Below are positions 6,134 through 10,899 of a DNA stretch of 10,899 nucleotides, piece by piece. The notes beneath the pieces were generated by a model. That model was not told the origin of the DNA. It did no database searches and saw nothing but the letters and a program-made list of their open reading frames with translations. A program made the translations under genes and the position numbers. Source of the stretch: a bacterium (GTDB lineage: Bacteria > Zhuqueibacterota > Zhuqueibacteria > Oceanimicrobiales > Oceanimicrobiaceae); the NCBI GenBank assembly GCA_046757025.1, contig JBHHXN010000173.1, positions 1 through 10,899 of the forward strand. Reading direction: 5' to 3'. How positions within the stretch are numbered: the first letter of the stretch is position 1; every line of letters starts with the position of its first letter.

Positions 6134-6251
6134 AACTAACAAGCGGATGCACCCGTCACGGCAAATAACTTGTGCGCCTCTAACAAACTTAAAACTTTTA
6201 ATTACCACCCTGCAGCTTCGCCGTGCGGGCCATCCGCGCGATCCGTTATGT
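6134..6251 (+). mobile_element. Integron attC recombination site
   Basis: R'' AACTAAC (6134-6140). Left arm GCGGATGCACCCGTCACGGC (6143-6162) pairs with right arm GCCGTGCGGGCCATCCGC (6220-6237), leaving two unpaired bases on the left arm and one mismatch. AT-rich central loop, R' GTTATGT (6245-6251), 118 bp in total. Confidence 0.8.
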
Positions 6252-6302
6252 GGTAAGTATCCGAGGCAACATCCTGAGAATAGCAGCAAAAAATAGAGAG
6301 TC

Positions 6303-7697: not shown

Positions 7698-9281
7698 ATG
7701 GCCAACAAAGAAAACAACAACAAATCTCTTGAAACCTGGATCTGGGATGCTGCCTGCAGCATTCGCGGCGCTAAGGACGCTTCAAAATACAAAGATTATA
7801 TCCTCCCTCTCATCTTCACCAAGCGACTGTGTGACGTTTTCGATGACGAGTTGAATCGCATCGCTGAGGAAGTCGGTTCGCGCGAGAAGGCCTTTGCGCT
7901 GGTGAAACGAGATAAAAGCCTCGTGCGCTTTTACCTGCCCCTGGAGCCGGAAAATCCAGATGAGCCTGTCTGGTCGGCTATACGCAAGCTTTCGGATAAA
8001 ATCGGCGAACGATTGACCACTTACCTGCGCGACATCGCGCGCGAGAATCCCCTCCTTCAGGGCATCATCGACCGGGTGGATTTTAACGCGACCACCCACG
8101 GCCAGCGGGATATCGAGGATGACCGGCTCAGCAACCTCATCGAAGCCATCAGCATGAAGCGGCTGGGTTTACAGGATGTGGAGGCCGACATCATCGGGCG
8201 CAGTTACGAGTATCTTATCCGCAAATTTGCCGAGGGCAGCGGCCAGAGCGCCGGTGAGTTTTACACGCCGAAAGAAGTTGGCCTGATCATGGCGAAGATC
8301 ATGGACCCGGAGCCAGGCATGGAAATCTACGATCCGTGCTGCGGCTCTGCAGGCCTGCTGATAAAGTGCGAGCTGGCGCTGGACGAGAAAATGAAGTCTT
8401 CGAACTCTGTCAGGGTTTCAAACCCTGACAGAGTTACTGGGTATGCGCCGCTCAAACTCTTTGGTCAGGAGTACACGCCCGAAACCTGGGCCATGGCCAA
8501 CATGAACATGATCATTCACGACATGGAAGGGCAGATCGAAATCGGCGACACTTTCCGCACTCCCAAGTTCCGCAAACAGAACCGGCTGCAGACCTTTGAC
8601 CGCGTGGTGGCCAATCCCATGTGGAACCAGGACTGGTTCACCGAGAAAGATTACGATGCCGACGAGCTCGACCGCTTTCCGCAGGGCGCGGGCTTTCCCG
8701 GCAAGCAGTCGGCGGACTGGGGGTGGGTGCAGCACATGCACGCCAGTCTGAAAGGCACCGGACGGGCAGCAATTGTGCTTGATACCGGTGCGGCTTCGCG
8801 GGGCTCCGGTAATGCTGGTAAAAATAAAGAAAAAGAGGTGCGCAAATGGTTTGTGGAGAACGACCTGATTGAAGGGGTAATCTACCTGCCGGAGAATCTG
8901 TTCTACAACACCAGCGCACCGGGCATTGTTTTGTTTTTGCACAAAAACAAACCGGCTGATCGCAAAGGCAAGCTCTTCCTGCTCAACGCCAGCAAAGAGT
9001 TCGAGAAGGGCGACCCGAAGAACTACATACCGGACGAAGGCATCGAGCGCATTGCTGAGACTTTTAAGGCTTGGAAAGAAGAGGACAAGTTTTCGCGTAT
9101 CGTCGGGCTGGAAGAGATTCGCAAGAACGATTACAACATTTCACCGAGTCGGTATATTCACACCGGGGAGCGTGAGACTTACAGGCCGATTGCGGAGATT
9201 GTGACGGAGTTGGATAAGTTAGAGAGGGAAGAGCGGAGCATCAACCGAGATTTACGGGAGATTTTAAGCAAGATCATGTGA
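7698..9281 (+). CDS. hsdM: Type I restriction-modification methyltransferase subunit M (N6-adenine)
   Basis: N-terminal LETWIWDAACSIRG/YKDYILPLIFTKRL, GEFYTP, SAM motif I YDPCCGSAGLL, catalytic motif IV VANPMW, LPENLFYNT, YNISPSRYI. Confidence 0.95.
   Translation: MANKENNNKSLETWIWDAACSIRGAKDASKYKDYILPLIFTKRLCDVFDDELNRIAEEVGSREKAFALVKRDKSLVRFYLPLEPENPDEPVWSAIRKLSDKIGERLTTYLRDIARENPLLQGIIDRVDFNATTHGQRDIEDDRLSNLIEAISMKRLGLQDVEADIIGRSYEYLIRKFAEGSGQSAGEFYTPKEVGLIMAKIMDPEPGMEIYDPCCGSAGLLIKCELALDEKMKSSNSVRVSNPDRVTGYAPLKLFGQEYTPETWAMANMNMIIHDMEGQIEIGDTFRTPKFRKQNRLQTFDRVVANPMWNQDWFTEKDYDADELDRFPQGAGFPGKQSADWGWVQHMHASLKGTGRAAIVLDTGAASRGSGNAGKNKEKEVRKWFVENDLIEGVIYLPENLFYNTSAPGIVLFLHKNKPADRKGKLFLLNASKEFEKGDPKNYIPDEGIERIAETFKAWKEEDKFSRIVGLEEIRKNDYNISPSRYIHTGERETYRPIAEIVTELDKLEREERSINRDLREILSKIM
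8403..8435. repeat. Perfect 33-bp palindrome (REP-like) in frame within hsdM
   Basis: AACTCTGTCAGGGTTT-C-AAACCCTGACAGAGTT: 16-bp perfect arms, exactly 11 codons (NSVRVSNPDRV). Confidence 0.9.
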
Positions 9282-9296
9282 GTGGCCGCTTATTTG

Positions 9297-9580
9297 TGTC
9301 ATTTCGAAGAACCGCCCCTTTCTATTGTCATTTCGAGGAGCGCAGCGACGAGAAATCTTAGGCTCCATGCACTGAGCAAGCCCAAAGATTTCTCGCCCGG
9401 CAAAAAACCGCCGGACTCGAAATGACAGGGCGGGTGGTGAGCGTGGCACCTCGTGTTGTTGTCATTTCGAGGAGCGGCGGCGACGGCCCTCTGTCATTTC
9501 GAGGAGCGCAGCGACGAGAAATCTTGGGCTCGGCGCACCCAGCCGAGCCCAAAAGATTTCTCGCTTCGCTCGAAATGACA
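9297..9580. repeat. Left cluster of TGTCATTTCGA palindromic (REP/RPE-like) elements
   Basis: Half-site 9297-9308, full unit 9326-9427, half-site 9460-9485, full unit 9492-9580. Consensus TGTCATTTCGAGGAGCGCAGCGACGAGAAATCTT-variable hairpin-AAGATTTCTCG..CTCGAAATGACA. Confidence 0.92.
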
Positions 9581-9605
9581 ACGGTGTAGGAGATGCGAGA
9601 ATACA

Positions 9606-9902
9606 ATGGCTAAAACCTACTACGTCTACTTACTCACGAACTGGAACAACAAGGTTATGTATGTTGGCGTGACCAACGATTTGCTACGACGGATGTATGA
9701 ACACAAACAAAAACTCGTCAAAGGATTTACTGAGAAGTACAACGTCAACAAGCTTGTCTATTTTGAGGAGACCGATGACGTGACCGTAGCCATTGCCAGA
9801 GAAAAAGAAATCAAGAAGTGGCGAAGGGAGAAAAAGAATGGGCTGGTTGAAACCACGAATCCTGAGTGGAAGGACCTGAGCGAAGGTTGGTTTGATGACT
9901 GA
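9606..9902 (+). CDS. Small stand-alone GIY-YIG nuclease
   Basis: YYVYLL...MYVGVTNDLLRRMYEHK...GFTEKY...LVYFE...AIAREKEIKKWRREKK...NPEWKDL. The Tyr/Arg/His/Glu/Asn residues typical of the family are intact. AGGAG at 9588-9592. Confidence 0.93.
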   Translation: MAKTYYVYLLTNWNNKVMYVGVTNDLLRRMYEHKQKLVKGFTEKYNVNKLVYFEETDDVTVAIAREKEIKKWRREKKNGLVETTNPEWKDLSEGWFDD

Positions 9903-9938
9903 ATCACTGCTTCCGAATTGCTCGAAACGTTCCTCACT

Positions 9939-10020
9939 TGTCATTTCGAAGGAGCGTAGCGACTGAGAAATCTTACTGGGTGAGGTGCCAAAAGATTTCT
10001 CGTATTCGCTCGAAATGACA
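9939..10020. repeat. TGTCATTTCGA palindromic element (right of GIY-YIG gene)
   Basis: TGTCATTTCGAAGGAGCGTAGCGACTGAGAAATCTT...AAGATTTCTCGTATTCGCTCGAAATGACA. Confidence 0.92.
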
Positions 10021-10027
10021 GCGGTGG

Positions 10028-10129
10028 GGGGAGCGCGCGACGTATCGAGCGATTGCGGAGATTGTGGCGGAGTTGGAGGCACGAGACACAGATCTGTAGT
10101 TACGTAAGATTTTAGACAGAATCATGTGA
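10028..10129 (+). pseudogene. Second, orphan copy of the hsdM 3' end
   Basis: Translates GERATYRAIAEIVAELEARDTDL*LRKILDRIM* versus hsdM GERETYRPIAEIVTELDKLEREERSINRDLREILSKIM*. The 28-bp core 10050-10077 matches 9187-9214 at 27/28. Confidence 0.9.
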
Positions 10130-10144
10130 GACGTCACTTTTGTT

Positions 10145-10227
10145 TGTCATTTCGAAGGAGCAAAGCGACTGAGAAATCCTTTCCGGGTATGTGCTAAAAA
10201 GATTTCTCGCATTCGCTCGAAATGACA
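10145..10227. repeat. TGTCATTTCGA palindromic element (fourth full unit)
   Basis: TGTCATTTCGAAGGAGCAAAGCGACTGAGAAATC...GATTTCTCGCATTCGCTCGAAATGACA; near copy of 9939-10020. Confidence 0.92.
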
Positions 10228-10234
10228 GCGGTGG

Positions 10235-10357
10235 GGGGAGTGCGCGACGTATCGAGCGATTGCGGAGATTGTGGCGGAGTTGGAGGACGAGGCAATAGAA
10301 AACGATTCTTCTCTTAAGAAAATCGTTCAATAATTGATGAGCCAAACATGGAATTAG
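10235..10357 (+). pseudogene. Third, orphan copy of the hsdM 3' end, overlapping the hsdS start
   Basis: Translates GECATYRAIAEIVAELEDEAIENDSSLKKIVQ*LMSQTWN*. Core 10257-10284 is identical to 10050-10077. The distal stop TAG 10355-10357 lies just past the hsdS ATG at 10348. Confidence 0.85.
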
Positions 10358-10899
10358 AATTATTAAATCTTCCAGATGATTGGAGAATAGCGCGACTTGA
10401 CGAAGCCTTCGAGTTCACTAAGAAACCTTTCGGCATGAAGATCAGAAATGGTCAACTTGTGCCTTTTATTCCAATGGATAGAATTCCAATTGGACGTCTC
10501 TTTGTTGAGGCCGCTGAAGTTCGAGAAAAAGTAGGAAGTGGAACCTACTTTGAAAATGGAGACTTCCTTCTCCCCAAAATCACACCTTCTTTTGAAAATG
10601 GTAAGCAAGCAATCGCGAGATTAGACGGTGATTACGGCTATGCAACTACGGAAGTGATTCCTATTCGAGAAAGAGAAGGCATTAGTGACACGTATTTCCT
10701 TCATTACGTTTTATTGCATCCAGAAATCAGAGCAGACTTGGCCGGTAAGATGGACGGAACGACCGGTCGACAACGCCTTCGAAAAGAAGTAGTCGCCGAT
10801 CGCCTGATCCCCCTTCCCCCGCTCCCCGAACAAAAGAAAATCGCCCACGTCCTCTCCACGGTGCAGCGGGCGATTGAGCAGCAGGAGCGCATCATTCAG
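10348..10899 (+). CDS. hsdS: Type I R-M specificity subunit S (5' part, runs off the window)
   Basis: Not in the ORF track because it has no stop. My translation: MELELLNLPDDWRIARLDEAF...FENGDFLLPKITPSFENGK...ATTEVIPI...MDGTTGRQRL...IPLPPLPEQKKIAHVLSTVQRAIEQQERIIQ. It shows the LPxxW start, a TRD, and the conserved IPLPPLxEQxxI helix. Confidence 0.95.
   Translation, partial: MELELLNLPDDWRIARLDEAFEFTKKPFGMKIRNGQLVPFIPMDRIPIGRLFVEAAEVREKVGSGTYFENGDFLLPKITPSFENGKQAIARLDGDYGYATTEVIPIREREGISDTYFLHYVLLHPEIRADLAGKMDGTTGRQRLRKEVVADRLIPLPPLPEQKKIAHVLSTVQRAIEQQERIIQ

Follow-up and report, generated by a model that had tools for sequence, protein, structure and literature searches.

The small nuclease SsnA is a 94-residue GIY-YIG protein whose substrate is single-stranded DNA, cleaved immediately 5' of a hairpin tagged CGTCATT, and which requires residues Y6, Y17 and E64; the sections of the Ssn paper drawn on here remark on the insertion-sequence-like layout of the gene and its repeats, and leave mobility and repeat multiplication open (PMC11893778). 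Insertions with long target duplication at restriction-modification (RM) loci carry long, variable direct repeats and need no integrase (PMC2853133). In tandem paralog clusters, unequal crossing-over and circle excision gain, lose and move a unit in which the 3' region of a gene is joined to the DNA downstream of it, also between strains (PMC2568036), and at the pneumococcal tvr (SpnIV) locus modules lying between hsdM and hsdR excise and reintegrate via direct repeats, partly without a recombinase (PMC6265443). Here, we analyzed a 10,899-nt contig from a bacterium of the Oceanimicrobiaceae (JBHHXN010000173.1 of assembly GCA_046757025.1; contig C173 of the genome that we call G000), referred to below as the window. 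Its end is formed by hsdM, which encodes the methyltransferase subunit of a type I RM system, a small GIY-YIG nuclease gene and the start of hsdS, and the 3' end, or tail, of hsdM occurs there three times. By analogy, the locus appears to work like long target duplication and gene-end unequal crossing-over and recalls tvr, yet it does not fall within the definition of any of the three. What is new is the combination of two known kinds of thing, a candidate Ssn hairpin cassette and a methylase-tail duplication.

A first-pass annotation of the window placed the starts of the hsdM tails at 9165, 10028 and 10235, which delimit modules of 863 and 207 bp, and these positions proved exact. Tails 1 and 2 do finish in ATCATGTGA with exactly 15 nt to TGTCATTTCGAAG (9297 and 10145), TCGAAATGACAGCGGTGG closes both modules ahead of GGGGAG, and only the first module holds a gene. 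What the earlier reading took for module ends belongs to the arms of long hairpins, a point that it missed; when the DNA folding of the four composite hairpins was compared with that of shuffled sequences, the z scores were -6.7, -7.7, -6.7 and -2.7. The proposal that each module supplies a replacement C-terminus holds for tail 1, which is intact, and fails for tail 2, which is unusable (in-frame TAG at 10097; 34 versus 39 codons). The tail 3 frame, once thought to be coupled to the start of hsdS, closes at TAA 10331-10333, 14 nt before the hsdS ATG at 10348, and reaches hsdS only if this stop is ignored (next stop 10355). Scored with a tail profile built from homologues, tails 2 and 3 gave 29 and 37 bits; since control DNA reached at most 11.0 bits with the rebuilt profile, their likeness to hsdM tails is not due to chance. 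Tails 2 and 3 have a 90-nt segment in common (9990-10079 and 10197-10286; 2 mismatches, 98%) that contains a 45-nt exact repeat, and their identity to tail 1 is 82-84% over 50 nt only.

The spare tails score as once-coding ends of other hsdM alleles rather than as products of plain duplication and decay. We scored them on a family matrix built from 126 hsdM tails and used 5000 equally mutated copies of tail 1 as the comparison set. The 3' half of tail 2 scored 20.0 compared to 19.1 for tail 1, despite differences at 19 of 48 bases, while the mutated copies averaged -24 and none of the 5000 reached the tail 2 score. The 3' half of tail 3, which differs at 32 of 48 bases, fits the family only with a three-codon gap (the best of four gaps tried), and again 0 of 5000 copies did as well. 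These family-like scores indicate that the ends of three different, once-working hsdM alleles are stacked at this locus, in keeping with the earlier preference for insertion over plain duplication followed by divergence. The 5' stub common to tails 2 and 3 is nearest to tail 1 (42/51), compared to 39 for the best other family tail and with 157 of 5000 in the simulation. Plain duplication and decay accounts for the 90-nt repeat only.

The cargo between tails 1 and 2 is likely, judging from its sequence, an Ssn-SRM cassette that encodes a candidate Ssn-family nuclease. The 98-residue protein matches PF01541 over residues 5-77 and otherwise only an overlapping T5orf172 model, and it lies within the size and domain limits of Ssn proteins (a single GIY-YIG domain, <150 residues). 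As a stand-in for N. meningitidis SsnA we used a 94-residue N. gonorrhoeae protein, to which the window nuclease is 45% identical over 91 residues, with E values of 4e-12 in a collection search and 1.7e-29 in a pairwise comparison (threshold E < 1e-10). The N. gonorrhoeae protein has Y, Y and E at positions 6, 17 and 64, and the 700 nt to each side of its gene contain a total of 13 NTS matches when up to 2 mismatches are allowed; the corresponding catalytic residues of the window nuclease, Y8, Y19 and E66, have the same spacing. The strict published SRM pattern has 0 matches in the window, being missed by one base. With one mismatch allowed there were 3 matches, one upstream and two downstream of the gene, compared to 0.17 expected and with none in 300 resampled sequences. 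For comparison, only 42% of Ssn homologues have the strict motif on both sides (PMC11893778). The pairing of a GIY-YIG gene with these repeats corresponds to Ssn/SRM, and for these two parts the first-pass view that this is no described system is not supported.

Close homologues of the window nuclease are usually flanked by such hairpins. A flanking motif composed after inspecting the first 29 Ssn loci was present on both sides in 24 of these 29 (control 0/105), and it was found in 37 of 58 new loci. From the 75-nt substrate and 20-nt product of the Ssn paper (PMC11893778) we derived a cut position 5 nt 5' of the G of GTCAT, which puts the predicted cuts in the window on the bottom strand at 10024/10025 and 10231/10232, in each case 3 nt from the start of a tail. 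Other Ssn-like matches in G000 (on C28, C129, C259, C337, C109, C34 and C5) contain stops or are fragments, and the copy in the window is the only intact one found in that genome with this query. No viral relative of the window nuclease was confirmed. The outer linker of hairpin A also follows other such hairpins: its pattern occurs at 27 places in 18 of 167 genomes, compared to 3 for the reversed control, and 13 of the 27 adjoin a hairpin as judged by eye. Three of the 13 lack an RM tail, as does the viral locus L293, and these tail-free hairpins rule out a linker specific to gene tails.

We next turn to the hsdM-hsdS junction in other genomes. Homologous loci came in two sets, 89 in one (best 80 of 493) and 80 in the other (best 80 of 243). 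After removal of 3 loci without an hsdM stop, 29 that were outside the close subfamily or were the window itself, and 10 duplicates, 127 non-redundant homologues remained. In 57 of these hsdS directly follows hsdM, 45 have cargo between the two genes and 25 do not reach hsdS; the junction is therefore a cargo slot, as first proposed, in 45 of the 102 homologues with hsdS in reach. The genes in the slot include BrnT/antitoxin, DUF4062, RhuM, YhcG, Fic and AAA members (48 of 110 listed open reading frames (ORFs) scanned). The predicted recurrence of repeated tails with different cargo was found as well: 11 of the 70 non-direct loci (8/45 with cargo, 3/25 incomplete) contain extra tails, with 14 profile matches of at least 14 bits. 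The control comprised the other strand of the searched 108,613 bases plus 331,961 bases from farther downstream (~440 kb in all), and no score there exceeded 11.0 bits. Four weak candidates detected by self-alignment alone (L002, L057, L084 and L037) are not counted among the 11. No Ssn gene was found in the 70 non-direct intervals, and extra tails in loci free of Ssn argue that the slot and its tail scars are general and do not need the nuclease.

The position of the join varies between genomes. Relative to -117 nt in the window, other loci join from about -41 to beyond -420 nt, with extra tails that start within the profile doing so at columns 1 to 91 of 132, and this scatter over more than 350 nt rules out the single fixed GGGGAG junction that had been expected across genomes. 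The majority of retained tails overlap the next start codon. Several extra tails are most like the working tail at the junction itself, with 22, 26 and 50 nt of exact identity in L047, L048 and L093, as a crossover in shared sequence predicts. Separately, three extra pieces of tail are present in L117 and one of 285 nt in L093, each between different cargo genes (AAA ATPase, YhcG, DUF4062). In four of the 70 intervals there is a small GIY-YIG gene that is more distantly related to the window's (36-39% identical) and has its own hairpins; in these loci (L037, L046, L150 and L154) the gene lies just after the hsdM stop with hairpin arrays, and three overlap the stop by ATGA.

Four sequencing runs of one study (X1-X4), available as contigs and possibly including the source of the window, contain the stretch, and the number of units varies among them as anticipated: the 207-bp unit is present in three and skipped by one contig in the fourth. 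In X1 and X2, 10050-10271 forms a separate 222-nt contig with depths of 9.0 and 12.9, and in X4 a contig spans 10050-10228 at a depth of 12.7, all near the depth of the flanks. By contrast, a single 971-nt contig of X3 runs from 9722-10034 straight to 10242-10899 with no other letters between. At this joint 45 letters fit either side, and these are the exact 45-nt repeat core. The dominant allele of X3 lacks the 207-bp unit, as a crossover in the 45-nt repeat would give, and the same would be seen in a precursor and in a deletion. For this unit X3 shows an empty-site allele with one copy of the repeat; none was seen for the Ssn module, and the 57 homologues with hsdM directly on hsdS are more distant.

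An amplified array of the same unit is present in a second genus of the family (G013; 6% contamination). There, on one contig (G013:C206; L221 7660-9936), the first ~38 nt of a window-like hsdM, with no gene body, are followed by a hairpin-tail array with at least 4 hairpin units and tail-2-type spacers by profile, and more by alignment. The array includes two identical Ssn genes, 91% identical to that of the window in amino acids and 87% in nucleotides. The first-pass annotation had taken the 207-bp unit for a separately inserted non-autonomous element; its repetition in G013, which makes it common to two genera, favors reading it as a single repeat of a hairpin array. The letters of G013 also occur as variant joints in the four runs of the study. 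The same hairpin subfamily is found without tails on four other G013 contigs. A further unit lies at a contig end (G013:C232; L292); it gives way to unrelated sequence, beyond which is a Phd/PIN toxin-antitoxin pair. A search of 167 genomes of the phylum found the tail-2 unit only in G000 and G013, and viral contigs had none; matches in G164 and G001 are short and partial.

A different methylase has been treated in a similar way in another family. In G132 (C169; L223 3116-5230), two 937-bp modules of hairpins and an Ssn gene (63% identical to the window's) are framed by three decayed copies of the 3' end of an Eco57I-like methylase gene, whose body is missing. The outer linker is the same as in the window, and the third methylase end is different. 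This array lies between murD and an aspartokinase-like gene, and each tail contains a small inserted hairpin. In another type I subfamily (L310 1326-2036; G423), an Ssn cassette sits between hsdM and hsdS, and the hairpin end together with the hsdS ribosome site and first codons is repeated upstream of the nuclease (39 nt, 82%). In L327, a methylase start is repeated around the Ssn gene (39 nt, 97%). Besides the window, 4 of the 87 Ssn loci, including one relative of the window, have gene-end repeats, and all four that could be classified are RM gene ends. L305, not counted among these, has a 106-nt repeat around Ssn, and L334 has tandem Ssn modules without any RM tail. A tandem short-repeat array also lies downstream of an intact Eco57I-like methylase gene in G060:C63 (L295 1700-2470).

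We consider it fairly probable that an Ssn cassette occupies a cargo slot at the hsdM-hsdS junction, that the tails there are scars of recombination between hsdM alleles, and that hairpin-plus-tail units were afterwards gained and lost. The order of events, the recombination pathway and any part played by Ssn we infer as follows. The end of another hsdM allele, together with its downstream cargo, would enter through the conserved hsdM body; the incoming end would repair hsdM and the resident end would be displaced to the front of hsdS. Because three different allele ends are stacked, allele exchange would have occurred at least twice. A 52-nt tail stub just outside the hairpin may then have joined the cassette and become a homology arm. 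Units could be removed or added, without a dedicated recombinase, by crossovers between the direct repeats, 45 nt of which match exactly. Ssn would be passenger cargo; single-stranded DNA entering the cell would be its substrate, cut next to the hairpins, and such cuts may stimulate the events above. Several observations weigh against this account. Tails 2 and 3 and all G013 units meet the hairpin at nearly the same place, and in the G132 array the same outer linker is followed by a different methylase tail three times; nothing in plain recombination calls for so regular a geometry. On the bottom strand, the predicted cut is only 3 nt from the tail start. An allele without the whole Ssn module was not seen in the population sampled by the four runs, which belong to one study that may include the window's own source and whose contigs omit rare variants. 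Finally, the window's contig stops within hsdS, and a recombinase could lie farther downstream or act in trans.

Alternatively, Ssn could act as the agent of capture. It would cut incoming single-stranded DNA outside the right hairpin and thereby set the end of the cassette, with the hsdM body as the anchor; the cut end would be joined to the resident tail, and the cassette would spread into methylase ends, bringing a replacement end with it. We regard this as rather unlikely. It would account for the predicted cut 3 nt from the junction, for the G132 array with the same linker and a triplicated Eco57I-like tail around its two modules, for the repeated hairpin end plus hsdS start of L310 and the repeated methylase start of L327, and for the RM identity of all four classifiable gene-end repeats. 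The cassette would then be a selfish element that supplies a new gene end in each round and leaves the old one behind, and capture would be the mobility mechanism of NTS-ssn-NTS units and explain G132, L310 and L327, a proposal that we hold with the same reserve. However, such repeats are rare, being present in only 4 of 87 Ssn loci of which one is related to the window, 11 loci have extra hsdM tails without Ssn, and the linker also follows hairpins with no adjoining gene tail. Moreover, we know of no joining activity for Ssn. In Neisseria, SsnA reduces integration of repeat-flanked DNA (PMC11893778).

The locus as a whole is highly unlikely to have arisen by a plain tandem duplication that took in the hsdM 3' end and the neighboring hairpin, with neutral decay thereafter. 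The 90-nt segment with its 2 mismatches is a recent duplicate or a conversion tract, and the stub is nearer to tail 1 than to any of the 126 family tails, as duplication would have it. This idea is largely refuted, however, by the 3' halves of tails 2 and 3, which keep family-like coding despite their many differences, and extra tails elsewhere go with different cargo. Even more doubtful is site-specific integration by a recombinase acting in trans on a GGGGAG core, each cassette bringing a replacement 3' end. Both window modules have the same junction and G013 a similar one, and excision and reintegration through direct repeats is known at tvr (PMC6265443). But common descent of the unit explains the shared junction, tail 2 is broken, the scatter of junctions elsewhere is unfavorable, and the 11 window ORFs scanned include no recombinase, as the first-pass annotation had noted. 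That the triplication is an assembly artefact is barely credible: the locus is rich in repeats and no single contig of the four runs spans all three tails, but the 207-bp unit is distinct in sequence, at about 80% identity to hairpin A, forms a contig of its own at flank-like depth in three runs and recurs in G013.

Free-standing homing endonuclease genes of fungal mitochondria supply a replacement 3' end while the displaced end lies downstream, and the enzymes are modular double-strand cutters. The window is alike in that a GIY-YIG gene lies behind a gene end that would have been repaired. Its protein differs in having no DNA-binding module, and its identity as a group I intron endonuclease was rejected at 23 bits against a model cut-off of 56. 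The features in common with Ssn and NTS/SRM (PMC11893778) are a single-domain GIY-YIG protein of ~95 residues, the spacing of Y, Y and E, and clusters of TGTC/CGTC-tagged hairpins on both sides. Unlike the published cases, the hairpins of the window are one base off the strict SRM, the cassette is found within the operon of a type I RM system, and the spacer of its array is part of a host gene; a term search of the main text of PMC11893778 returned no "restriction-modification". As in insertions with long target duplication, direct repeats longer than 30 bp (50 nt at 82-84%, 90 nt at 98%) are present without a mobility gene. In PMC2853133, however, the RM genes are the insert and the target copies are near-identical, whereas here an Ssn cassette, not the RM system itself, is inserted within an RM operon, and the repeat is the methylase gene's own end in copies from different alleles. 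The tandem clusters of PMC2568036 consist of full-length paralogs, compared to gene tails of 50-120 nt and a nuclease cassette in the window. At tvr it is the target domains of hsdS that are shuffled, and TvrR and a toxin-antitoxin pair are part of the locus (PMC6265443); none of this is seen in the window, where the repeat is an hsdM tail. A tvr-type phase-variable locus was also rejected on the single partial hsdS, the lack of a second copy in G000 with this query and the lack of a recombinase among the scanned ORFs. The short TGTC-tagged palindromes in dimers and clusters resemble CGTC-tagged REP and REP/BIME arrays (PMC3733652). Unlike REPs with a transposase, their partner is a GIY-YIG nuclease, although the parts of PMC3733652 used here report no tyrosine transposase for CGTC repeats either. 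A REP/BIME with RAYT is excluded by the flanked gene (GIY-YIG) and the tag (TGTC), in place of an HUH transposase with GTAG palindromes, and a site-specific integrative element is made improbable by the unfixed junction, the lack of a recombinase in the scanned ORFs and the damaged tail 2.

Literature searches and a 2025 review (PMC12707154, as far as its text was available) yielded no description of duplicated hsdM tails, with subscription journals mostly outside this coverage, so this is no proof of absence. The locus offers a natural test case for the movement of Ssn units, with a junction 3 nt from a predicted cut, a unit that varies between samples, a longer array of a related genus in the same runs and an independent parallel at another methylase. 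It also puts numbers on the uptake of accessory genes between hsdM and hsdS with the methylase left intact, the displaced end being kept in 11 of 70 loci. If Ssn is merely a passenger, the locus is a tidy combination of two known things.

Features of the hsdM-hsdS region of the window (positions in the 10,899-nt contig; strand "." for hairpin features)
Feature	Position	Strand	Evidence or detail
hsdM, type I methyltransferase subunit, 527 aa, intact	7698..9281	+	PF02384, PF12161
Tail 1, working hsdM 3' end, 39 codons including stop	9165..9281	+	
15-nt spacer from hsdM stop to first hairpin arm	9282..9296	+	
Left cluster of TGTCATT-tagged hairpin repeats (SRM-like)	9297..9580	.	Folding; 1-mismatch SRM match at 9580 minus
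Left cluster content: half copies at 9297 and 9460; composite hairpins 9326-9427 and 9492-9580			z -6.7, -7.7
Single-domain GIY-YIG nuclease, 98 aa, Ssn-family candidate	9606..9902	+	PF01541; 45% to Neisseria protein; Y8, Y19, E66
Composite hairpin A and outer linker	9939..10027	.	z -6.7; 1-mismatch SRM match at 10020 minus
90-nt near-identical repeat, copy 1 (hairpin end and tail stub)	9990..10079	+	Exact 45-nt core 10035-10079
Tail 2, broken hsdM end, spacer of repeat unit	10028..10129	+	Five codons short; TAG at 10097
Composite hairpin B and outer linker	10145..10234	.	z -2.7; 1-mismatch SRM match at 10227 minus
90-nt repeat, copy 2	10197..10286	+	Exact core 10242-10286
Tail 3, stub common with tail 2 fused to a third hsdM allele's end, with three codons missing at the join	10235..10342	+	TAA at 10331
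hsdS 5' part, truncated by contig end	10348..10899	+	PF01420

With the window's hsdS as query, the remainder of the gene was found in neither G000 nor G013, and G000 has no second copy. The 11 window ORFs were scanned against Pfam for tyrosine and serine recombinases, with none found; two of these ORFs had no match of any kind. An Rfam search gave no match and no solved structure was found. Within hsdM, 8403-8435 forms a perfect 16-bp hairpin (z -6.7) that is in frame and extends the variable loop ahead of the GQE motif to 39 residues, compared to 27-30 in most homologues. Many run contigs have only this piece in common with the window, indicating that it is a dispersed repeat of another family. 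Farther upstream, ahead of a DUF3644 gene, lies a 119-nt imperfect inverted repeat (6134-6252) with one 87% copy on contig C93, which we take to resemble an integron attC site.

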